A DNA stretch of 64,000 nucleotides from positions 736,001 to 800,000 of the forward strand of contig CAWANJ010000009.1 of assembly GCA_963783385.1 (NCBI GenBank), given 5' to 3'. The DNA is from an uncultured Gemmatimonadales bacterium. GTDB lineage: Bacteria; Gemmatimonadota; Gemmatimonadetes; Palauibacterales; Palauibacteraceae. The notes below the pieces were generated by a model. It ran no database searches. It was not told the origin of the DNA and saw only the letters and a list, made by a program, of their open reading frames with translations. The position numbers were made by a program, and so were the translations under genes. Shown in pieces: positions 7,253 to 63,413 of the stretch; the first letter of the stretch is position 1, and each line of letters begins with the position of its first letter.

Positions 7253-8590
7253 TCAGGCGGCCTCGTCCGGCACGCTCCGCCGGTATCGCTCCACACCGCC
7301 CACCAGGGTCACGTGCACCCGCCCGGTGAGCTCCCGTCCCCCGAACGGCGTGTTCCGGCTCCGGGAGAGGAACGCCTCGGGCTCGACGGTCCAGCGCTCC
7401 TCCGGGTCGAAGAGGACGATGTCCGCGGGGCTGCCGGGCCGCAACGTCCCCGCATCGATCCCCATGATCCGCGCCGGCGAGCAGGACATCCGGTCCACCA
7501 GCCCGGCCAGGGGCAGGTGCCCTGGCTCGACCAGCTCGCACATGCCCAGCCCGAGCGCCGTCTCCAGCCCGACGATCCCGAACGGCGCATCGTCGAACTC
7601 CCGCTCCTTCTCCTCGTAATGGTGCGGCGCGTGGTCGGTGGCGATCACATCGATCACGCCGTCCACCAGGCCCTGCCGCACCGCCTCGCGGTCCTCCTCG
7701 GTGCGCAGGGGAGGGTTCATCTTGGAGTCGGTCCTGTACCCGCGCACGGCCGTCTCGGTCAGGGCCAGGTGGTGGGGCGTCACCTCCGAGGTGACGCTCA
7801 GACCACGCTCGCGGGCCATCCGGAGTTGCTCGACCGTCTGCCGCGCGGAGACGTGGCACACGTGCAGGTGCCCGCCGGTGAGCTCGGCGAGCTGGATGTC
7901 GCGCGCCACCATGGCCGCCTCGGCCGCGTTCGGCTGGCCGCGGAGCCCGAGGGCGGTGGACACCTTGCCCTCGTTCATAACTCCGAACCCGGCTAGCTCC
8001 CGCACCTCCGAGTGCTGCAGGACCGGGATCCCGAACGTCTGCGTGTACTCGAGCAGGCGCCGCAGGAGCCCGGCGTTCCAGATCGGATGACCGTCGTCCG
8101 ACACGGCCACGGCCCCCGCGGCCACCATCTCCCCGATCTCGGTCATGCGCTCGCCGGCCAGGTCCAGGGAGGCCGCCCCGATCGGCATCACCCGTGCGCC
8201 GCCTGCGCGCTCACCCTCGGCGCGCACGAAGCCCACCGCGGCCGGGTCGTCGATCGGGGGGTCCGTGTTCGGCATCGTCCACACGGTGGTGAACCCGCCG
8301 GCCGCGGCGGCCCGCGCCCCGGTCAGGATCGTCTCCTTGTGCTCGCCCCCGGGCTCACGCAAGTGGACATGGAGGTCGATGAAGCCGGGCGCCACCACGA
8401 GGCCGTCCGCGTCCAGCGTCTCGCACCCCTCGGGGGGCTCCAGCGTCCCGCCGGCCGCCTCAATGCGGCCATCCACGACCAGGAGGTCGCCGACCCCGTC
8501 CACGTCCCGGGACGGATCGAGCAGCCGCCCCCCCTTGAGGAGGACGGGCCGCCCGCCCGGTCCGCCGGCCGGCCGCGGGCGCGAGCTCAC
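7253..8590 (-). CDS. pyrC: Dihydroorotase
   Basis: [42 protein letters not shown]. Confidence 0.95.
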
Positions 8591-9565
8591 GCCTCTCCCT
8601 GCTTGGCGGCTTCGGCGGCCTCGGGCTTGCCGCCCGCCAGGAGGTAGAGGACCGCCATGCGCACCGCCACGCCGTTGGTGACCTGGGGCAGGATCATCGA
8701 CCGCGGTCCGTCGGCCACGTCGGAGTCGATCTCGACCCCGCGGTTCATCGGTCCGGGGTGGAGCACCACGAGATCCTCCCGCGCGCGCTCGAGGCGCTCG
8801 GCGCTCACCCCGAACACCCGGTTGTACTCACGCACCGAGGGGATGAACCCGGCCTTCATGCGCTCGAGCTGCAGGCGGAGGACGTAGAGGGCGTCGGACC
8901 ACTCGATCGCCTCCTCCACCCGCCCGAACACGCTCACGCCCAGCTCCTCGATCCCCAGCGGGATGAGCGTCCTCGGACCGCACACCGCCACCTCGGCGCC
9001 CACCTTGAGGAGGCCCCAGAATGTTGGATCGGGCGACCCTGGAGTGCAGGATGTCGCCCACGATGCAGACCTTGAGGCCCTCGAGCTCGCCGAACCGGTC
9101 TCGCAGGGTGAGGAGGTCGAGGAGCGCCTGGGTGGGGTGCTCGTGCTGCCCGTCCCCGCCGTTGATCACGTTGGAGGGGATGCGATCGGCCAGGAAGCGG
9201 GCCGCCCCCGAGGAGCCGTGCCGCATCACGACCATGTCGATCCGCATGGCCTCCAGCGTGCGCGCCGTATCCACCAGCGTCTCCCCCTTCTGCACGGACG
9301 AGCCGGTGGCGGAGATGTTGACCGTGTCGGCCGAGAGCCGCTTCTCGGCGAACTCGAAGGAGATGCGGGTCCGGGTGGAGGGCTCGAAGAACAGGTTGAC
9401 GATCGTCTTGCCGCGCAGCACCGGGACCTTCTTGATGCGGCGCTCGCTGATCTCCTTGAAGGGCTCCGCCGTGTCGAGGATGGTGCGGATCTGCTCGCCG
9501 GTGAGCCCCTCGAGGCCGACCAGGTCCTTGCCGAGCCCGGCTCCCGGGGGCGTGCCGTCCCTCAC
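8587..9565 (-). CDS. pyrB: Aspartate carbamoyltransferase catalytic subunit (apparent single-base insertion ~9020)
   Basis: [35 protein letters not shown] in one frame; RLQLER and [11 protein letters not shown] in the next; removing one T restores [13 protein letters not shown]. Confidence 0.92.
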
Positions 9566-10122
9566 CCGGCCTCCGGCGTGTCGACCAGGCACACGCACAG
9601 GTTGCCGTCCAGGTCGGGGACGCTGACCGCCACCTGGCGGCCAGGAGGGACCTCGAGGCGGCGGCCCACGTAGTCGGGCTGGATGGGGAGCTCCCGGCCG
9701 CCCCGGTCGACGAGGACGCACAGCTCGATGCGGCGAGGTCGGCCAAAGTCCGCCAGCTCGTCCAGAGCGGCGCGCACTGTGCGGCCCGTGAACAGGACAT
9801 CGTCCACGAGCACGACCCTGCGGCCGGTGATCTCGCCCGGCAGCTCGGTGGGCCCGATCACCGGTCGGGGGCCGACCTGCTCGAAGTCGTCGCGGTAGAG
9901 CGTGATGTCCAGGGATCCGGTGGCCACGGGTCCAAAGCCGGCCCGTTCCAGGTGTTTGGCGATGCGGTCGGCGAGCTCGACGCCCCGGCGGCGGATTCCC
10001 ACGACCATCAGGTCGCTCGGATCGTCGGTGCGGTCGGCGATGAGCCCGGCCAGCTCGCGGAGGGTCTCCTCCACGGCTTCCCGGTCCATCACCTTGTCGC
10101 GGCCGCCCGTCGTCCCGGGCAT
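9562..10122 (-). CDS. pyrR: Bifunctional pyr operon regulator / uracil phosphoribosyltransferase
   Basis: [45 protein letters not shown]. Confidence 0.95.
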
Positions 10123-10150
10123 GACCCTCCGTGCTCGTGGCGTGGGTGGG

Positions 10151-10252
10151 CCCGCACCCGCCCGGGCGGGCGCGGGACTCGAGGCGCCGGCCCTCTCGGG
10201 CCGACGGACCCGGCGCTGGCCGGAGTATACGGGCCGGGACACCGCCAATCAA
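10151..10252 (-). promoter_or_regulatory. pyrRBC promoter and structured leader
   Basis: TTGATT(10252-10247)-N17-TATACT(10229-10224), then hairpin CGGCCC-GAGA-GGGCCG (10203-10188) and a second GC hairpin (10176-10151). Confidence 0.6.
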
Positions 10253-10334: not shown

Positions 10335-11894
10335 GTGCCTCTGCTCGCCAAGCTGCTTCGACGCAAGCCGATCCCCGAACGGGCGGAAGACGCCCTCGAG
10401 ACCGACCTCAAGCGCACGCTGGGCAAGTGGCAGCTGACCGCGCTCGGCGTGGGCGCCATCATCGGCGCCGGGATCTTCTCGGCCGCCGGCACGGCCGTCG
10501 CGGGAGGGGCCGATCACCTGGGCGCCGGTCCGGCGCTGGTCGTCTCCTACATCGGCGTGGCCATGGCCTGCGGGTTCGCGGCCCTGTGCTACGCCGAGTT
10601 CGCGGCCATGATTCCCGAGTCGGGGAGTGCCTACACCTACGCCTACTCGACCCTGGGCGAGATCGTGGCGTGGATCATCGGCTGGGACCTCATCATCGAG
10701 TACGCGGTCGGCAACATCGCCGTGGCGGTGAGCTGGTCGGGCTACTTCCAGCAGTTCCTGCGCGGCTTCGGCATGGCGCTGCCCGAATGGATGGCCACCG
10801 ACCCGATCACGGCCAACAAGGCGGCGCACACGGTGGCGCAGGCGACGCAGGCGGACACGCTCTCGTCGGTCGCCCCCCACATCGTGCGGGCCGCACAGTC
10901 GCTCTCCGAGGCGCCGCACCTCCTGGGGCTCCCGATCGTGGTCAACGTTCCCGCGGTCATGATCGTGGCGCTCATCACCTGGATCCTGGTCGTCGGGATC
11001 CGGGAGAGCTCGTGGTTCAACGTGGTGATGGTGGTCATCAAGCTCGCCATCCTCGGCTTCTTCATCGTGGCCGGGGCCTTCTACGTCCGACCGGCCAACT
11101 GGACACCCTTCGCCCCCAACGGGCTGCAGGGAATCTGGACCGGCGCGGCGCTCATCTTCTTCGCTTACATCGGCTTCGACGCCGTGTCGACCGCGGCCGA
11201 GGAGACGAAGCACCCGCAGACGGACATGCCGTTCGCGATGATCGCCTCCCTGATCGTCACCTCGATCCTGTACATCGCCGTGACCCTGGTCCTGACGGGA
11301 CTGGTGCCCTGGACCCATCTGGGGACGGCCGAGCCGCTGGCCACGGCGTTCAGCGAGCGCGGCCTCAACATGGCGGCCGGCATCATCTCCGTGGGAGCCC
11401 TCGCCGCCACCACCTCGGTGCTGCTGGTGTTCCAGCTGGGGCAGCCGCGCATCCTGTTTTCCATGGCGCGGGACGGCCTCCTGCCGCCCGTGGTGGCGAA
11501 GGTGCACAAGAAGCACCGTACGCCCTACGTGGCCACGATCATGACCGGGATCTTCGTGGCGTTCTTCGCGGCCTTCATGCCGATCGCCGAGATCATCGAG
11601 CTCACCAACATCGGCACCCTGTTCGCCTTCGTGCTGGTGGCCATCGGGATCATCGTGCTCCGCCGGCTGGAGCCTGACCGGGAGCGACCCTTCAAGACCC
11701 CGTGGGTGCCCTTCGTGCCGCTGGTGGCGATCCTCGCCTGCCTGGGCCTCATGCTGGGGCTGCCGCTCCTGACCTGGATCCGGTTCGGCATCTGGCTCCT
11801 GGTGGGACTGGCGTTCTACTATCTGTACGGGCGCAAGCACAGCGTCCTGCGCCGCCCGGACCGGGAGGCGGCCGCGGCGGGCGGCGGCGAGTAG
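10335..11894 (+). CDS. APC-family amino acid permease
   Basis: GVGAIIGAGIF, LCYAEFAAMIP.SGSAYTY, FFAYIGFDAVSTAAEE, PRILFSMARDGLLP; many TMs. Confidence 0.92.
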   Translation: MPLLAKLLRRKPIPERAEDALETDLKRTLGKWQLTALGVGAIIGAGIFSAAGTAVAGGADHLGAGPALVVSYIGVAMACGFAALCYAEFAAMIPESGSAYTYAYSTLGEIVAWIIGWDLIIEYAVGNIAVAVSWSGYFQQFLRGFGMALPEWMATDPITANKAAHTVAQATQADTLSSVAPHIVRAAQSLSEAPHLLGLPIVVNVPAVMIVALITWILVVGIRESSWFNVVMVVIKLAILGFFIVAGAFYVRPANWTPFAPNGLQGIWTGAALIFFAYIGFDAVSTAAEETKHPQTDMPFAMIASLIVTSILYIAVTLVLTGLVPWTHLGTAEPLATAFSERGLNMAAGIISVGALAATTSVLLVFQLGQPRILFSMARDGLLPPVVAKVHKKHRTPYVATIMTGIFVAFFAAFMPIAEIIELTNIGTLFAFVLVAIGIIVLRRLEPDRERPFKTPWVPFVPLVAILACLGLMLGLPLLTWIRFGIWLLVGLAFYYLYGRKHSVLRRPDREAAAAGGGE

Positions 11895-11915
11895 GGCGAG
11901 CCGCAGCGTGCGCCC

Positions 11916-13075
11916 GTGACGCACGCCCCCGGGTACGACCTCGAGGCGGTGCGGCGGAGGATCCCCCTCCTCCGCCGCCTCGTCCCCATGAACGCCTGCT
12001 CGCACGCGCCCCAGTCCGACGCCACCCGCGCCGCCGCCGAGGCCTACCTGGGCTCGTGGGACCGCGGACGGCATGGACTGGGACCGCTGGATGGAGGAGG
12101 TGGAGCGGGCCCGGGCGACCTTCGCCGCACCTGGTCGGCGCGGAGCCCGCGGACGTGGCCGTGGCCGCCTCGGTCTCCCAGGCCACCTCCAGCGTGGCCA
12201 GCGGTCTGGACTACGCGGGCGAGCGGCGCCGCGTGCTGGTGAGCGGCGCGGAATTCCCCACCGTGGCCCACGTGTGGCTCGCCCAGGAGCGCTTCGGCGC
12301 CGAGGTGGCCCGGGTCCCGGTGCGGGATGGCGTGGTCGCCCTGGAGGACTACGAGGCCGCCCTCGACGAGCGCACGCTGGTCGTGTCGGCCTGCCACGGC
12401 TACTACCAGGACGGGTTCAAGCAGGACGTCCCCGCCATCGCCGCGCTGGCTCACGCGCACGGCGCCCTCCTGTACGTCGACGCCTACCAGACCCTGGGCA
12501 CCGCGCCGTTCGACGCCCCCGCCAGCGGGGCGGACTTCGTGGCCGCCGGCTGCCTCAAGTACCTGATGGGGATCCCCGGCATCGCCTTCGTGTGGGTGCG
12601 GCCCGGGCTGGCGGAGCGGCTGCGGCCCGCGCTCACCGGCTGGTTCGGGCGCCGCGAGCCGTTCGCCTTCGACGCGGAGCGCCTGGACTGGGCCGAGGGC
12701 GCGCGCCGGCTCGACCTCGGTACCCCGCCCGTGCTGGAGGCCTACGTCGCCCGCGCCGGCATGGAGTGGCTGCGCGAGGTCGGGCTCGAGGCCATCGGAG
12801 CGTGGAACCGAGCGCTCGGGGCCAGACTGATCGAGGGAGGCCAGGAGCGCGGCTTCCGGCTCCTCGGAACCGACGACCCGGACCGGAAGACGCCCTCCAC
12901 CGCCTTCGCGTGCGAGGACGGCCACGCCGTGGAGGCCGCCCTGCGGGAACGCGGGGTGCTGGCCTCGGCGCGCGGGCCCGCCATCCGGCTGGCGCCCCAC
13001 TTCTACAGCTCCCTCGAGGACGTGGACCGCGCGCTGGACGCCCTGTCGGAGGTGCTGGGGGGCGGCGAGGCGTGA
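11916..13075 (+). CDS. Class V PLP-dependent enzyme, kynureninase-like (apparent frameshifts ~12066 and ~12130)
   Basis: Three joined frames: MTHAPGYDLEAVRRRIP..., MDWDRWMEEVERARATFA, then EFPT, VDAYQ, GCLKYLMG (PLP Lys), IRLAPHFY. Confidence 0.8.
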
Positions 13076-14410
13076 GCCCGGCCCGCGAGACCTTCGGGTC
13101 CCGGCTCGGGATGCTGGCCACCATGATCGGGGTGGCCGTGGGGCTCGGGAACGTGTGGCGCTTCCCGTACATGGTGGGGCGCTACGGCGGGGCGGCGTTC
13201 GTGCTCCTCTACGTGGTGCTGGCCGCGGCCGTGGGCGTGCCGGGGCTGATGGCCGAGTGGTCGCTGGGGCGGGCCACGCGGCGCGGGCCGCTGGGGGCGT
13301 TCGAGCGGGCCGGACTCCCGGGCGGACGCGTTCGTCGGCTGGCTCCTGTTCCTGGTCGTCCTCACCGCGCTCGGCTACTACACGAACGCCATCGGGTGGG
13401 TGGCCTGCTACGCCCTCGGCCAGCTCCTCGTCCCCCTGGGGCGGCCTCTGGACCCCTCCGCCATTCTCCCGCCCGCTTCCGGCTTCTCCGGCCGGGCCTT
13501 CGCGCTGCAGCTCACCTTCACGGCCCTCCTCCTCCTGGCCCAGGGCGCGGTGATCCGGAAGGGGCTCCGGGCCGGGATCGAGAAGGCGAGCCGGGTGCTG
13601 ACGCCCCTCGTGTTCGTTTCCCTGCTCGTCCTCCTCGTCCGCTCCCTCACCCTGCCGGGCGCGGGGGCCGGCGCTGCGCTGGTACCTGGCCTTCCACCCC
13701 TCGCGACGTGACCCCGTCCGTGCTGGTGGCGGCGCTGGGCCAGGTGGTGTTCTCGCTGGCGCTGGGCGGCACGATGATGGTCGTGTACGGCTCCTACCTG
13801 GCCGAGGGGGAGGCGCTCAAGGGCGACGCCATCCTCACGGTGGTGGGCGACACGGCGGCCGGCTTCCTGGCGGGTCTCGCCATCTTCCCGGCCGTGTTCG
13901 CGTTCGGTCTCGAGCCCGGCAGCGGCCCCGGCCTCCTGTTCGCCACCCTGCCCCGCGTCTTCGCCCACATCCCGGCCGGCTGGGCCTTCGGCGTCCTGTT
14001 CTTCGGGGCCTCGCTGGGCGCCGCCTTCCTGTCGGGCATCGCCGCCTTCGAGGTGCTGGCCGCCGGCCTCGGCGACGCCCTCGGGATGCCGCGGCGGAAG
14101 GCCGTGAACCTCCTCCTGGGGCTGCTGCCTCCTGCTCGCCCTGCCGCCCATGGTGAACCTGAAGGTCTTCGTCCCCTGGGACCTCACCTTCGGCTCGGGC
14201 GGGCAGACGGTGGGCGCGCTGCTCGCGGCCATCACCGTGGGCTGGGCCCTCCGCCGCGGCGCCCTGCTCGAGCAGATCGGCGGCGACCACCCGGGCCGGC
14301 TGGACCGCTTCCTGGTCGCCTGGCTACGCTGGGTGCTGCCCGCGGCCATCCTGACGGCGGGAGCGTGGTGGGTGGCGTCGGACGTGCTGGGGGTGGCGGG
14401 AGGGGCGTAG
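13072..14410 (+). CDS. Sodium-dependent transporter, NSS/SLC6 family (several apparent frameshifts)
   Basis: GVAVGLGNVWRFPY, GQVVFSLALG, VYGSYL, AIFPAVFAFGLEPGSGPGLLF spread across shifted frames. Confidence 0.85.
14294..14397 (+). repeat. Direct repeat copy 1 (3' end of NSS transporter gene)
   Basis: 104 bp matching 18245-18348 with 3 A/G differences; weaker homology extends back to CACCTTCGGCT at 14185. Confidence 0.92.
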
Positions 14411-14456: not shown

Positions 14457-15582
14457 CTAGCCACTCGATCCTGGCGTGACGATCCGAGGCTTCAGAATCT
14501 CGGCTCGGGTGTCCCCCGCGCGGGTTTCTGACATGCGGTACAGGAGCAGACCGTCGCCGCAGACGGGAGCGACGACCGCATCGAATCAATGCCGCGCCAT
14601 CACGCGGACTCGGGACCCATGGCTGACGTCCAGGACCTCGACCACCGTGTCGAATGTCCGACGGGTCCAGGCGGGTGAGCTGAAGTGGAGCGAGTCGGGA
14701 CTCCAGTGCGCATCAGGTACCACCGAAAACGTCCAGAGCCGGCGGTCGGTGCCCTCCGTCAGGTGCTCGAGGTACACGAGCGGAGGCAAATCCGTGTACA
14801 TCCTCTCCAGCCGGCCCGGCGTGACCTCCTGACGGTCGGGAAACCAGGCCGCATGGCGTGCGTAGCTTCCCTCGACCTCACCCGCATCGCTCCAGTGGTA
14901 GATCTCGTATCTCCACACGCTGGCGGTCCAGAGGTCACCGTGGCGCCCGCCCGCGACGGTCCACCAGTCGAGATCGCCGAACTGGTGGTTGTGAGTTCCG
15001 AATTGTGCTATCCGGGTCCCGGCATCGTCGAGCACACGGAACAGCGGCCGCTCGTTGTCAGACGCCGCCGGTTCGGTCGTGAGGAGCCATCGACCCCCAC
15101 CGAGACGGCTCCATCCGCTCCCACCGCCGGGCAGTCGAAAGGAACCCAGAAACCGGCCTTCTGCCGTGACTGTGACGGCTCGCTGATTGAACCGGTCGAA
15201 CACTTCGAGCGTATCTCCGTGCATGACCGTGAGGCCGAGCTGATTGCCGAACTCTGTGGGCCCCTGCCCTGGGCGACCCACCGCCCTCAGCCACATACCG
15301 TCGCTGCCGTAGACCGCCAGCTGACCGCCCCCGACAAGATCACCGACCACGAAATCCCCGCTCACCAAATGTGCGATCGAGCACAGAGTTCCGAGGGGCG
15401 CATCAGCGGAGATCGAGGCAGGATCGTTCGCCCCTCCGAGCCGGGCGATCACCTGGATCTCGAGAATGGCATGTTGGACAGTTCGAGTCTGCGGCGATTG
15501 AGCTCTGTGACACATTTTCGTTACTTCGGTGCCGTGGACGCGATCCGGTGGCGGAGCAGGCCGCGAGAACGGCGACCAGCAT
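14457..15582 (-). pseudogene. Beta-propeller-like lipoprotein (frameshift ~15465, in-frame TGA 14588-14586); start uncertain
   Basis: MLVAVLAAC lipobox and CPTC, then after a shift LEIQVIARLG...AVGRPGQGPTEF (GxxGxGPxEF motif of 6-bladed propeller/NHL-like proteins); frame stays open 42 codons past the TGA (FDAVVAPVCGDGLLLY...). Confidence 0.7.
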
Positions 15583-15827
15583 CGTGAGGAGGGGGCCTCC
15601 TCTCGACGGCGTCCAGCGACGGTTTCGTGTAGGAACCTCACGGCGCAAATCAGCACACTCAGTTAGCGCCTGGTGAGACTCATCCTCCATGGCGCAGGCC
15701 ATGAAGCGAGTTACCGTGGACCGGTCTGAACATAGACGCCGGCAGTATCCGAGCACTGCAGTCGCCCGAGATACGGACGGACTGCCCAGAGCCGCTCCCA
15801 GACCGGGCTGCACCGTGCCATGCGGTT

Positions 15828-16508
15828 CTATCCGGCCCCATGCTTCTGAAGAGCCTGGCGAACATCCTCGACCAACATGGACTCCGCGGGCAGTCCCGTC
15901 TCGACAATGCGTCCGATAACGAACGTCGGCGTTCCTCGAACTCCCAACCTTCTGCCCGCCTGCATGTCCCTCTCCACGCGGGGCATCGGCGCTGCATCTC
16001 TTAGGCACTCCATGAACCGTTCCGAGTCGAGCACGCCGGCTCTACGGGACAGTTCCACCCAGTTCAGGAGTCCGAGCGAGTCTTGCTTGGAGTACGCTAC
16101 GTGAAGGAACGCCGCAAATCGGCCCTCGTCTGCAGCGCATTCCGACGCCACAGCCGCTTCGAGTGCCTGCGGGTGAACCTCTGACAGGGGATAGTGCCTG
16201 AATCTCACTGCCACGTGTCCGCCGAACACGGTGGTCACAGAATCCAGGAGCCCTTCGGCCCGCGCACAATACGGGCATTCCATGTCTGCGAACTCCACGA
16301 CGTGAACACGGGCCGTCTTGGATCCGATGACGTGCCCCCCATTATCGAGTTCCACTGCAAGTTTCCGGTCAATCGTACGGACGGGGGAGCGTGAGGTCTC
16401 GATCGGTTGCGTACTCAATTCACGTCGAACTACGAGGGCCGTGACGGTCACTGCGCAGCCTGCAAGAACCCCGAGCGCCGCATTCTGAAAAAGATCGGAT
16501 GCCTTCAC
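15828..16508 (-). CDS. Membrane-anchored DsbA-like thiol:disulfide oxidoreductase
   Basis: N-terminal TM, VVEFADMECPYC, FRHYPL..HPQA, GVRGTPTF cis-Pro motif. Confidence 0.9.
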   Translation of the reverse strand: MKASDLFQNAALGVLAGCAVTVTALVVRRELSTQPIETSRSPVRTIDRKLAVELDNGGHVIGSKTARVHVVEFADMECPYCARAEGLLDSVTTVFGGHVAVRFRHYPLSEVHPQALEAAVASECAADEGRFAAFLHVAYSKQDSLGLLNWVELSRRAGVLDSERFMECLRDAAPMPRVERDMQAGRRLGVRGTPTFVIGRIVETGLPAESMLVEDVRQALQKHGAG

Positions 16509-16636: not shown

Positions 16637-16855
16637 TCAGAAACACTGACCAGGCATGGGTGACCCGGGGCCAGCTGAGCACTTAGAACACACGGGGTCC
16701 GGACTGCAGTCAGAATTCGAATGGCAGGCCTGGTCGCAGACCAGTGAATTCGTCCTGGTCGAATTCGAATTGGCATACGCCGGTGTTGAAATGTATACCG
16801 CGCCACCGAAGGTCACAATGGCTGCGATCAACCCAGCGATGAGTCGCTTGTTCAT
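16637..16855 (-). CDS. Small secreted six-cysteine peptide (72 aa; putative cystine knot)
   Basis: AGGAG RBS before ATG 16855; signal peptide MNKRLIAGLIAAIVTFGGAVYISTPAYA; mature part ends CDQACHSNSDCSPDPVCSKCSAGPGSPMPGQCF. Confidence 0.8.
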   Translation of the reverse strand: MNKRLIAGLIAAIVTFGGAVYISTPAYANSNSTRTNSLVCDQACHSNSDCSPDPVCSKCSAGPGSPMPGQCF

Positions 16856-16895
16856 GACCTTCTCCTGGCTACGGTGGACTACCACCTCTAGTATT

Positions 16896-16925
16896 ATTTT
16901 AAAAGATCGTTCGACGCCGTGTCAA
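16896..16925 (-). promoter_or_regulatory. Near-consensus sigma70 promoter of the peptide gene
   Basis: TTGACA(16925-16920)-N18-TAAAAT(16901-16896) in an AT-rich patch 40 nt upstream of the ATG. Confidence 0.75.
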
Positions 16926-17132
16926 GAATTCAGGGCCAGGACCTTCCCCAGAGACTCCATCTCAGATTCTGTAACCCGTTGATGATCAGTCGCTTGTAGG
17001 CATCTGCGAGTGAAACGGGCCCGCTCGAGCGGAGAATGGGGAACCTTCGTGCAGATGAAAGCGGGCCCCCACTCGCACAAGTTGTTGGTGTCCATCGGCA
17101 AGGAAGCCGACCACCTGGCGAGGGGGACCCGG

Positions 17133-18192
17133 ATGGAGAGTGCGCGGCTCGCGGGGAAGGTGCAAGGTCAGATCCTGCGATTCTCGGGGAAACTTTCGGC
17201 CGGGCTGCCCAGAGATGGCCCGCCGGGCGGTGGGGGAGATCCTCTACGGGATGCAGGCCCGCGGCTCGGTTCGCCTTTCGGAGATCGGACGGGCCCTGGA
17301 GGAAGAGACGGTCCTGAAGACGGTGATCGAGCGGCTGGGCCGACAGCTCGGATGGCCCGAGCTTCGGCGCCGGGTGCGGGAGAACCTCCTGGCCCTCGGG
17401 ACGCCGAAGGTAGGCGAGCAAACGCTGCTGGTCACCGACCTGACCGACATCAGCAAGGCCTACGCTCAGAAGATGGAGCACCTGGCCAGGGTGTACGACG
17501 GCCGGGCGGACGAGATCACCGACGGCTACGAGTGCGTGGAGGTGCTGGCGGCCGAGGCGGGTTCGCCCGACGTGGTGCCCCTGTATCAGGAGCTCTACAG
17601 TTCGGAGGCGCCGGAGTTTGTGAGCGAGAACCGGAAGGTGCTCAAGGCGGTGCGGGCGGTGAGCCGCGCCACCGAGGGCCGGGGGATCTGGGTGATCGAC
17701 CGGGGCGGAGACCGCCGGAACATCACCCCGCGGCTGGAGCGAGGCCAGGACTTTCTGATCCGGCTCTAGGGCCGGCGGCACCTCGAGTGGAGGCGCTCGG
17801 CTCTGAGCGCCCGGGAGCTGGCGACCCGCACACGCCGCCCTTTCGAGGAGACGGTCGTCAAGGAAGAGGGCGCCGAGGAGAGAGCCTATGTCCTGCGCTT
17901 CGGCTCCACCCCGGTGCGCTTTCCCGGCTCGGCGCGCCGACTCTGGCTGGTCGTCGTGGACGGACGGGGAGCGAAGCCGCTTCTGCTGCTGACCACCCTG
18001 CCCGCCGGCCGGTCCAGGAGGCGCACCTGGCGGATCGTCCAGAGCTACTTGACCCGCTGGCGGGTGGAGGAGACGATCCGCTTCCTCAAGCAGAGCTACG
18101 ACGTGGAGGACATCCGGCGGCTCAAGTACGACCGGCTCCGGGCCATGGCCACGCTCGTGATGGCCGCCGGTCACTTCGCCACCTTCGGCTAG
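17133..18192 (+). pseudogene. IS4-family DDE transposase remnant
   Basis: DLTDISKAYAQKMEHL, WVIDRGGD, YLTRWRVEETIRFLK (Y-2-R-3-E-6-K); frameshift ~17212, in-frame TAG 17767-17769, C-terminus truncated at the repeat. Confidence 0.85.
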
Positions 18193-18358
18193 GGCGGACA
18201 GACCGCCGGCGGCCCTCCTGCGCCAGCTCGGGGGCGGGGCCCCCGGCCGGCTGGACCGCTTCCTGGTCGCCTGGCTGCGCTGGGTGCTGCCCGCGGCCAT
18301 CCTGGCGGCGGGGGCGTGGTGGGTGGCGTCGGACGTGCTGGGGGTGGCCGGCGCCTAG
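18180..18358 (+). repeat. Direct repeat copy 2: decayed 3' fragment of the NSS transporter gene
   Basis: 18245-18348 near-identical to 14294-14397; 18180-18244 is a diverged, internally deleted copy of 14185-14293 with TCG>TAG. Confidence 0.9.
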
Positions 18359-38338: not shown

Positions 38339-38512
38339 CGGATGGAGTCTACCGGAAGCCGGTGTGAATCCGGCACGGCCCCGCCACTGTGAGAGGCCCG
38401 ACGCTCCCCCCGGGGGACGCGGAACGGCGCGCTCGACGAGCCACTGGGAGCTTCGAGAGGCTACCGGGAAGGCGAGCGCGACCGCCTCGAGTCAGGAGAC
38501 CGACTCCATCCG
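38339..38512 (+). ncRNA. Cobalamin riboswitch
   Basis: GGAAGCCGGTGTGAATCCGGCACGGCCCCGCCACTGT, GCCACTGG...CCGGGAAGGC, AGTCAGGAGACC; closing stem CGGATGGAGTC/GACTCCATCCG; directly upstream of btu genes. Confidence 0.93.
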
Positions 38513-61240: not shown

Positions 61241-62920
61241 TCAGCGCAGCGACCGCCGCGCCACGCGCGGCGCCTCGAGCGCACGCACCACGGGCAGCTC
61301 CACCACCCGGCCCGACCCGTACACCAGGCCCGAGAGCGCGCCCTCCTCGGTTCCGAGGAGCCGGTCGAAGGCGTTCCACCGGAACAGGCCGTAGCCCTCC
61401 GGCTCCAGCAGGGCGAACGCCAGCCGGCCCAGGGGCTGCGCGGTGCTCACGTAGTAGGCGCCGGCGGGCAGCGTGCGCAGCCGGCGCTCGTAGCGGCCCT
61501 CCACGTCCAGGAGCGCGTGGCCCTGGAAGCGACGATCCGCCCACCGCAGGCTGTCGGCCACGAAAACCTCGACCGTATCCGTCCATGGGGCCCGGAGCTC
61601 GGACACCGCCAGGCCGTGCAGCCTCAGGAGCCGCGCGGTCGCTCTCTCGGAGGCGGGGAGGAAGTAGCCGGCGGGCAGGCGCCGGGTGCGGGTGAACCCG
61701 AACCGGTCCAGGATCGGGAGCCGGACCGTCCGGAAGGAGCCGGTCGGCTCGAGCACGGGCCGGCCCCGCGCCGAGTCTCCCGTGGGGCGCATGACCTCCA
61801 GCCGCACCGGCTCCTCGCCCCGGCTGACGGGCTCGAACCGAACCCCGAGCTCGGGCCGTGACCGCGCGCCGGCTCCCTCGAGCGTCGTCTCCCGGTCCGC
61901 TTCGCGCTCGAGTCGCCGAATCTCCGTCGCGTGCTCGGCCGCGTAGCGGAGGATCTCCACGAGGAAGTCGTGGGAGACCCGCACGCGCGTGCGGAAGTCG
62001 GCGTGCGAGTAGGCCTCGCTGAGAATGGCCATGCGCCCGCGGAGCCCCACGTAGTTGGTACCGTACCAGGCCAGGGGCGCGTAGGTCGTCCACGCCTCGG
62101 GATGCAGGGGGTCGCGCACGTTGCCGTACACGAAGATGGGCTCGCCATGGTCCCGTCCCATGGCCCGGCGCACCGCGGGGAGGAGGGAGTCGCGCACGAA
62201 GCCCAGCGGCCCCGGAGGCGCGTCGGGCTGGAGCGGGGGCGAGTAGGTCAGCAGGTAGCCGTGGTGCGTCCCGTCGGTCGTGTGCAGGTCGACCATCAGC
62301 GCCGGATCCCAGCGGTCGTACACCCGGGCCAGGGAGGCCCGCGTCTCGGGAGCCTCCGCCTTGAGGTAGTCACGATTGAGATCGAGGTTGAGACCATCGG
62401 GCCTGAGTCCAACGCTGTCAGGGCCTTGCTGCTCCTGGCGATGGAGGGCTCCGGGTCCGAGCGCGTCGTTCCCGTCCGGGTTGTAGACCGGCGCCACCAG
62501 CACGACGAGCCGCTCCAGGAGCGCGCGGCGCGGGCCGGCCAGCTCCCGCAGGAGCTGCTGCACCGCCTCCTTCCCCTCGACCTCCCCACCGTGGATGTTC
62601 GCCTGCAGGTAGACCACGAGCTTGCCGGATGCCGCCGCCTCGGCCGGGGAGGTGACGGTCGGCTCGGAGGCCACGATGAACAGGATCGGCTTGCCGAGGG
62701 CGGACCGCCCCATGGTCTGGAGCTGGATGGGCGCCCCCTGCGCCTGGAGGCTGTCCAGGAAGGCCGCCACTTCGGCCGTGGTCGACGTGGCGGCGTAGGC
62801 GGTGCGCTCCGGCACCGTGGCGGGTGACGGCGCTCCCTGGGCACCGAGCGGCCCGGCGAGCGACGAGAGCAGCGCGGCCGCGAGCGCCGCGACGGCGCCG
62901 AGACGGGGTCCTCCGGGCAT
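61241..62920 (-). CDS. Secreted M14-family zinc carboxypeptidase
   Basis: Signal peptide; NIHGGEVEG (HxxE), YNPDG, LNRD, DLHT. Confidence 0.88.
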   Translation of the reverse strand: MPGGPRLGAVAALAAALLSSLAGPLGAQGAPSPATVPERTAYAATSTTAEVAAFLDSLQAQGAPIQLQTMGRSALGKPILFIVASEPTVTSPAEAAASGKLVVYLQANIHGGEVEGKEAVQQLLRELAGPRRALLERLVVLVAPVYNPDGNDALGPGALHRQEQQGPDSVGLRPDGLNLDLNRDYLKAEAPETRASLARVYDRWDPALMVDLHTTDGTHHGYLLTYSPPLQPDAPPGPLGFVRDSLLPAVRRAMGRDHGEPIFVYGNVRDPLHPEAWTTYAPLAWYGTNYVGLRGRMAILSEAYSHADFRTRVRVSHDFLVEILRYAAEHATEIRRLEREADRETTLEGAGARSRPELGVRFEPVSRGEEPVRLEVMRPTGDSARGRPVLEPTGSFRTVRLPILDRFGFTRTRRLPAGYFLPASERATARLLRLHGLAVSELRAPWTDTVEVFVADSLRWADRRFQGHALLDVEGRYERRLRTLPAGAYYVSTAQPLGRLAFALLEPEGYGLFRWNAFDRLLGTEEGALSGLVYGSGRVVELPVVRALEAPRVARRSLR

Positions 62921-63086
62921 GTGTCCCTCCCTCTCCGAGGACGGATCGCTCTCCCATGGACGGCGCCTCGCGCGCCCGACCCCAAAGGAGCGGCTCCCTG
63001 TCGGGCCGGCAAGCCGCCGGAACGTCCTATGCATGATTCTGCCACCGAGGCATCGCAGGACCGCAGTACAGTGGCAAGGAGGAATC

Positions 63087-63413
63087 ATGGCTAACGGTTG
63101 GATCATAGGAATCCTGGGAATCTGGCTGGTCATCACGCCCTTCCTCGGCTTCGCGAGCCTGGCGAACTCCTGGATCGATTGGGTCGTCGGCGTCGTCGTG
63201 GCGATCTTCGCCTTCACGATGACCCGCGAGAAGCCGGGCCAGGGCTGGTCGGCCGGCATCGTGTCCATCTGGCTGTTCATCGCGGGCTTCATCGGAGGTC
63301 TGGTGTCCGGCGCAGGGACATGGTGGAACGACATCCTGGTCGGCCTCGTGTTCATGGTGACCGGTTTCACGGCCCTGCCGGACGGTCACACCCGGCACCC
63401 GCAGACCGCGTGA
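63087..63413 (+). CDS. Small 4-TM SPW-repeat-like membrane protein
   Basis: GGAGG RBS; duplicated GIWL..TPF / SIWLFIAGF helical hairpins. Confidence 0.7.
   Translation: MANGWIIGILGIWLVITPFLGFASLANSWIDWVVGVVVAIFAFTMTREKPGQGWSAGIVSIWLFIAGFIGGLVSGAGTWWNDILVGLVFMVTGFTALPDGHTRHPQTA

Follow-up and report, generated by a model that had tools for sequence, protein, structure and literature searches.

The 64,000-nucleotide stretch of DNA analyzed here (the window, taken at its full length) carries a gene for the 72-residue precursor of a small six-cysteine peptide. Along the minus strand, a promoter-like site is followed by this gene, a DsbA-like gene and a propeller gene (Table 1). The cysteines of the precursor occupy residues 40, 44, 50, 56, 59 and 71 and are spaced 3-5-5-2-11, so the translated open reading frame (ORF) bears out the pattern C-x3-C-x5-C-x5-C-x2-C-x11-C given in a previous sequence-only reading of this DNA, which had likened the peptide to the carboxypeptidase-inhibitor knottins of plants. 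From the evidence presented below, we conclude that this bacterial gene is real and rare and that its product, which travels with a DsbA-like partner, is a probable knottin of that plant subtype.

Table 1. Position of the peptide gene, its neighbors and the borders of the island within the window
Feature	Position	Strand	Remarks
Precursor gene P0001, 72 residues	16637..16855	minus	Single ORF running to stop; orthologues P0002 and P0006
Six-cysteine core, residues 40-71, spacing 3-5-5-2-11; candidate inhibitor cystine knot	16643..16738	minus	PF02977 E 0.012 (mature part), below cut-off
Putative Sec signal peptide, residues 1-28	16772..16855	minus	Basic N-terminus, hydrophobic core and Ala-Tyr-Ala cleavage-type site
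Shine-Dalgarno-like site AGGAGAAGG before ATG	16858..16866	minus	Read from sequence
Sigma-70-type promoter-like site, TTGACA-18 nt-TAAAAT, upstream of peptide gene	16896..16925	minus	11/12 consensus matches
Membrane-anchored DsbA-like thiol-disulfide oxidoreductase	15828..16508	minus	CPYC active site, Thr-Pro loop, second conserved Cys pair 124/168
NHL-type beta-propeller lipoprotein gene, broken; start codon uncertain	14457..15690	minus	One frameshift near 5' end and in-frame TGA 14586-14588
Left copy of 140-nt direct repeat, 3' end of SNF transporter gene; left island border	14261..14400	plus	SNF family
Right copy of repeat, orphan SNF transporter 3' end; right island border	18212..18351	plus	89% identical to left copy
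Broken IS4-like transposase, upstream of peptide promoter	17130..18192	plus	In-frame stop 17767-17769

Relatives of the peptide are few. The protein search gave one relative among one candidate, P0002, which is 55% identical to the window peptide and whose database entry has a 40-residue extension from an upstream start. P0002 was again the sole relative in a profile search (five candidates) and in a HMMER scan of 1.84 billion representatives (four matches). A genome scan led from 20 pattern matches to two loci, L001 and L002. The first (CANPVD010000073.1) encodes P0006, a protein of 72 residues that is 53% identical to the window peptide, identical to P0002 at 68 of 72 positions, and built with the same signal-like architecture as the window precursor; the six cysteines, a Gly two residues before Cys6 and a His are kept between the two. 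L002 was rejected as a chance match: the stretch is off-frame, runs antisense to a dehydrogenase-like ORF and is devoid of the Cys frame. P0003 and P0005 matched in the signal or extension region, and P0004, with no match to the 3-5-5-2 frame in its tandem Cys repeats, is not a relative. The latter is a 436-residue protein with a signal-like start, whose Cys-rich repeats are explained by no Pfam family. A tblastn search with the peptide gave no phage match and five plasmid matches, which were put down to chance at expectation values (E) of 3 to 10.

Divergence between the window and L001 genes is unevenly distributed. For Cys1-Cys5 (20 codons), the nonsynonymous (dN) and synonymous (dS) values are 0.09 and 1.13, a dN/dS of about 0.08, against 0.56 and 1.14 (about 0.5) in the last loop and 0.59 and 1.40 (about 0.4) in the signal region, all from one sequence pair. 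The low ratio of Cys1-Cys5 relative to the other two regions suggests that selection maintains the very part that resembles the plant family. The short C-terminal tail of the window peptide is unlikely to be an assembly error, because the stop of the P0006 orthologue lies two codons further.

Several signals accompany the gene. The promoter-like site is unique between 14300 and 17300 (shuffle mean 0.5). At L001, TTGACA likewise lies upstream of the P0006 gene, the scan found no full promoter-like site, and the equivalent of the Shine-Dalgarno-like site stands at the matching position (GGGAGGAG). When the window was scanned for small Cys-rich ORFs that begin with a hydrophobic stretch and have a ribosome-binding site, the peptide ORF was the sole result. 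The promoter-like site, the ribosome-binding site, the orthologue in a second genome with all six cysteines kept and the low dN/dS thus indicate that the 72-residue ORF is a real gene. The precursor reaches a hydropathy maximum of 2.69 over an 11-residue stretch and has Ala-Tyr-Ala at residues 26-28, from which we infer a signal peptide cleaved after about 28 residues; a short Asn/Ser/Thr linker stands between the signal-like region and the Cys core. The predicted mature peptide (residues 29-72) has 44 residues, a mass of roughly 4.5 kDa, an isoelectric point of 5.3 and a net charge of about -1, and this acidity distinguishes it from cationic membrane-lytic peptides. No clear structure emerged in the intergenic regions downstream of the gene (z 1.18 and -1.47).

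The cysteine frame of the peptide is that of a known plant family. In the potato inhibitor (1H20) the cysteines at 8, 12, 18, 24, 27 and 34 give 3-5-5-2-6 (PMC10687636), so that the first four intervals are the same in both, as the sequence-only reading had stated. The tomato protein 2HLG, with cysteines at 2, 6, 12, 18, 21 (from the alignment) and 35, has 3-5-5-2-13; its fourth cysteine is 18 in the alignment and 19 in the legend of PMC10687636. The 11-residue last loop of the window peptide falls between the potato (6) and tomato (13) values. The motif of the plant family, CXXXCXXXXDCXXXXXCXXC, occurs in 90% of 42 plant sequences (PMC10687636) and is matched exactly by the window and L001 peptides. 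It includes the Asp before Cys3 that had been remarked upon earlier as shared, and which proves to be a family trait; in 2HLG, Cys3 is directly followed by Ile. With six cysteines in 32 residues and known loop lengths, the peptide is within the size of a knottin (six in 30-50 residues). Upon shuffling of the mature window peptide, the 3-5-5-2 spacing arose in 158 of 2,000,000 sequences and the full motif with Asp in 18 of 2,000,000 (15 of 2,000,000 for the L001 peptide), figures that apply to one preset Cys framework, the correction for many frameworks being given instead by the Pfam E-values. In the 127,996 six-frame residues of the window the 3-5-5-2 pattern occurs once. Within KNOTTIN, Cys IV precedes Cys V by two residues, at position 77, in the carboxypeptidase inhibitors, Conotoxin3 and Fungi1 (PMC2238874), and because three families have it there, the spacing can be regarded as a recurring knottin subtype.

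PF02977, the carboxypeptidase A inhibitor family, is the best Pfam match of all three members and the only one of 24,736 Pfam families matched by all three at E < 0.05. The E-values are 0.036 for the full window protein and 0.012 for its mature part (14.3 and 15.8 bits), 0.00023 for P0002, and 0.00064 and 0.00016 for the full and mature P0006 (21.8 bits for the latter); the three full proteins score 14.3, 21.3 and 19.9 bits. All three peptide searches of the PDB had 2HLG as top sequence match, weakly and non-significantly when taken alone (E 1.3, 0.13 and 0.18), with 9/20 residues of the window peptide and 10/20 of P0006 identical over Cys1-Cys5, including the SNSD run of loop 2. NCBIfam, PADLOC and PHROGs returned nothing meaningful for the peptide. 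The exact motif and these concordant top matches uphold the likeness to plant carboxypeptidase-inhibitor knottins.

The same matches, and the presence in the window of an M14 peptidase, though 44 kb away, are what one would expect of a true bacterial metallocarboxypeptidase inhibitor, a functional member of the potato inhibitor family (MEROPS I37) obtained by horizontal transfer or shared descent. We nevertheless hold this to be quite improbable. In plants, the inhibitor reaches into the carboxypeptidase active site with a C-terminal tail of about four residues that is hydrophobic (PMC10687636), and carboxypeptidase inhibition is unlikely here because that tail is missing: the residues past Cys6 number one (Phe), three and three (Gly-Gly-Thr) and are unconserved, for which reason we leave the peptide out of I37. 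The earlier observation of a single residue after Cys6 therefore holds, and the suggestion that the target may differ is probably right. Furthermore, loop 3 is hydrophobic in the plant family (PMC10687636) and polar, Asp-Pro, in the window peptide; the available text of PMC4189545 reports I37 from Solanales only; and fungal Avr9, which resembles the inhibitor in structure, has a function given as unknown in the part of PMC5398718 available. The M14 zinc carboxypeptidase itself (61244-63385, minus strand, E 1.6e-13) has no evidence of a link to the peptide gene.

The protein encoded next to the peptide is DsbA-like, with the thioredoxin fold, CXXC, X-Pro loop and predicted exported or membrane-anchored location that characterize such proteins. 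It matches Thioredoxin_4 (E 6.5e-22) and scores above the cut-off for PF13462 and PF01323 (DSBA), and its PDB matches are of the DsbA/ScsC type, including copper-resistance ScsC-type proteins. All 41 aligned sequences (the window protein and P0008-P0047) have C78, C81, T193 and P194, the second Cys pair 124/168 is likewise invariant, and an N-terminal hydrophobic anchor can be read from the sequence. A conserved Cys in this anchor is present in 90% of the 41. Relatives of the protein number 274 at an E of 1e-10 or lower; among the 120 matches listed, all four that carry a taxon in their name are from Gemmatimonadota, to which the host therefore probably belongs. The active sites of the 119 matches examined are CPFC (39), CPAC (30), CPYC (27), CPVC (8) and others (15), and the plasmid search gave seven distant matches. 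At L001 the peptide gene is followed 82 nt downstream by the start of a DsbA homologue (tblastn E 4e-11, 42% identity across 66 residues), inside which the contig ends. The pair occupies different chromosomal sites in the two genomes, following the SNF transporter in the window and recA-recX at L001; since the gene order is the same at both, the pair has been kept together at unrelated sites. The recA gene of L001 (4814-7264) contains an intein with LAGLIDADG domains.

This linkage bears on the state of the cysteines. ScsC-type proteins keep their partners reduced or isomerised under copper stress, which offers a parallel for a periplasmic peptide that would bind metal (Cu, Zn, Cd) or act as a redox buffer and be kept reduced or isomerised by the DsbA-like protein, and the six cysteines with a CxxC, the conserved His and the copper-resistance proteins among the neighbor's PDB matches could be read in this way. 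The Pfam scan of the 51 window ORFs contains no radical-SAM or DUF692-type modifying enzyme and the island no metal transporter; an even and fixed Cys count, the family-like spacing and an oxidising compartment would fit three disulfides better, and we regard the metal or redox peptide as highly improbable. Disulfides are favored over metal, an alternative already raised by the sequence-only reading, because of the signal-like N-terminus and the DsbA-like neighbor kept in two genomes.

The peptide, DsbA-like and propeller genes lie in a 3.8-kb island of lower GC, bracketed by copies of the SNF 3' end (14185-14400 and 18180-18351), where a further 32-nt repeat match was found (14185-14216 and 18180-18211). 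The GC content at third codon positions (GC3) is 0.63-0.73 in the three genes versus 0.91-0.97 in five flanking host genes, and the island can be interpreted as an insertion by which the end of the SNF gene was duplicated or replaced. The broken transposase also lies within it; its 3' piece matches the IS4 entry of NCBIfam (E 5.1e-8) and DDE_Tnp_1 of Pfam (E 6.9e-6). No terminal inverted repeats were found for it and no integrase was found in the island; the insertion sequence remnant terminates at the start of the right repeat copy. Rfam and tRNA scans of the window gave nothing inside the island. The propeller gene has a lipobox-like LAAC, NHL-repeat matches in the PDB (best E 4.9e-10) and a DUF5128 match at E 0.1, and no plasmid match. 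An assembly error may account for its break, since frameshifts of the contig also hit housekeeping genes, as may genuine decay. Frame changes occur in pyrB (8590-10252), a class V aminotransferase (11678-13075) and SNF (13078-14410, at least three), which suggests that this contig of 996,241 bases comes from an indel-prone long-read assembly. Elsewhere in the window, a Cobalamin riboswitch (38354-38500, plus strand, 53.7 bits) lies upstream of FecCD and TonB-receptor genes.

A mobile cassette, as the direct repeat and the GC3 contrast imply, would also suit a knotted signaling or antagonistic peptide, similar to a pheromone or bacteriocin, with the propeller lipoprotein as its receptor or immunity protein. 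Sublancin-type bacteriocin loci, which have their own thiol-disulfide oxidoreductases, recall the peptide-oxidoreductase-lipoprotein layout. This explanation, which overlaps the one we prefer, appears unlikely: the Pfam scan of the 51 window ORFs found no exporter, protease, regulator or modifying enzyme in the island, the peptide is acidic, and the propeller is broken as assembled.

Starting from the gene, its conservation, its linkage to the DsbA-like gene and the island, all of which are observed, we favor the following account, which we consider somewhat probable as a whole: a small mobile cassette produces an exported, DsbA-folded cystine-knot mini-protein whose conserved N-terminal loops bind a protein, probably a hydrolase. 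The promoter upstream of the peptide would drive the peptide, DsbA-like and propeller genes, whose order is observed and whose co-transcription is presumed. The 72-residue precursor would be exported through Sec and lose about 28 residues, whereupon the membrane-anchored DsbA-like neighbor may oxidise and reshuffle the six cysteines to I-IV, II-V and III-VI. In the periplasm or extracellularly, the resulting acidic peptide of roughly 4.5 kDa would act as a stable ligand of a protein. Its most likely role would be to inhibit an extracellular hydrolase that is not an M14A carboxypeptidase, and judging by their conservation the Cys1-Cys5 loops, not the C-terminal tail, would make the contact. The weakest step concerns the propeller lipoprotein, which may serve the peptide as anchor, as receptor or as a partner in self-protection. 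Convergence on one scaffold is a more probable source of the resemblance to plant inhibitors than shared descent. The scaffold does not fix the target, because 2HLG is TCMP-2, for which a non-protease partner is reported (PMC7648202), and because Avr9 has no assigned function.

The formation of an inhibitor cystine knot appears quite likely on the basis of sequence and context. The mature peptide alone (45 residues) and a two-row alignment (37 residues) were modeled with AlphaFold2, both with low confidence (predicted local distance difference test, pLDDT, 58.0 and 53.9). A knottin sheet would need strands at Cys2, Cys5 and Cys6, and the first model has short strands or bridges at these cysteines. 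For both peptides the nearest ESM Atlas cluster is an unnamed bacterial one of 70 residues, scoring 0.81 and 0.76, values that shuffled controls cover as well, and is a weak lead to further bacterial Cys-rich peptides. It has 63 members, with Acidobacteriota commonest among the five with a phylum.

Several points weigh against our interpretation. The second AlphaFold2 model is helical where the first is not, and Foldseek against the PDB and BFVD and two VIA wide searches, run with these low-confidence models, gave zero structural matches; the structure prediction and fold comparison envisaged in the sequence-only reading thus leave a knotted connectivity without support, null searches with models of such quality being uninformative. 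Profile comparison cut both ways, with PF02977 first for all three members and every score (14.3-21.8 bits) under the Pfam gathering score of 25 bits; Cys-rich peptides score easily in Pfam. The family has three members, two of them nearly identical, so that the conservation figures amount to one independent pair. The DsbA family is large and its member here need not be dedicated to the peptide; the propeller gene is interrupted in the window and was not seen at L001, where the contig ends; and the target, export and expression of the peptide are predicted. The absence of support from models and fold searches, the sub-threshold PF02977 scores and the ESM Atlas values inside the control range would agree with an exported three-disulfide peptide of non-knotted connectivity, whose spacing matches by coincidence among small Cys frameworks. 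We consider this rather improbable, because four exact intervals plus Asp are so rare among the shuffled sequences and because no other Pfam family was matched by all three members.

Knottins are prized drug scaffolds and almost wholly eukaryotic, and the bacterial examples found in print are predictions. A 44-residue, synthesisable peptide is a cheap test of whether true bacterial knottins exist and of whether the plant inhibitor scaffold originated repeatedly. The DsbA-like enzyme, which neighbors the peptide in both genomes, is a candidate knot-folding catalyst, and knot folding is a known bottleneck in bacterial expression. In its furthest form, which we advance only tentatively, our proposal is that of a genuine bacterial knot of the potato-inhibitor subtype from a dedicated mobile peptide-DsbA-propeller cassette, with the many related DsbA genes of Gemmatimonadota marking unexplored disulfide-rich peptides that have their own knot-folding enzyme. 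If true, it could give a folding catalyst for making knottins in bacteria and the first solved bacterial knottin, the "bacterial knottins" being a KNOTTIN database family with no experimental structure as of 2017 in the available text of the KNOTTIN paper (PMC5753296).

Among known systems, we can compare the cassette with several. Secreted Cys-rich peptides that need a thiol-disulfide oxidoreductase include sublancin, with BdbA/BdbB encoded within its cluster, and the heat-stable enterotoxin, with DsbA. Neither is a knottin of the potato-inhibitor type, and the window island contains no glycosyltransferase or peptide ABC exporter. Avr9, which we take to be the KNOTTIN family Fungi1, is a microbial secreted cystine knot with an inhibitor-like structure and, as Fungi1, also has Cys IV at 77; compared by description, it differs in being a eukaryotic plant-pathogen effector. 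KrICK (Ktedonobacter racemifer) and HoHP-ICKD (Haliangium ochraceum) are homology models on a scorpion toxin (PMC3694633). Like the window peptide, KrICK is bacterial and combines a signal peptide with one predicted knottin; compared by description, the two differ from it in having been found via scorpion ICK (inhibitor cystine knot) toxins and in that the available text mentions no linked folding enzyme. Predicted bacterial knottins are therefore already in print, which lowers the surprise of the window peptide; a literature search for bacterial knottins gave just these two papers (PMC5753296, PMC3694633). The available parts of PMC13418204, PMC6262176, PMC6889267, PMC9885460 and PMC5877539 hold no further bacterial case, the first assigning sponge knottins to the animal host. 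In a literature search that covered few subscription papers and no supplements, and is weak to that extent, there was no bacterial potato-inhibitor-type peptide, no Gemmatimonadota peptide-DsbA cassette and nothing on disulfide-rich peptide clusters with oxidoreductases. Neither potato-inhibitor-type spacing in bacteria nor a linked DsbA was met with in this search. From the potato inhibitor family (PF02977, I37; 1H20 and tomato TCMP-2, 2HLG) the window peptide differs in its bacterial host, the lack of a hydrophobic tail, a polar loop 3, a score below cut-off, the linkage to a DsbA-like gene, and a knot and activity that are predicted; it shares with this family the 3-5-5-2 spacing, the Asp before Cys3, small size, a secreted precursor and a last loop within the plant range of 6-13, and has the SNSD loop in common with 2HLG.
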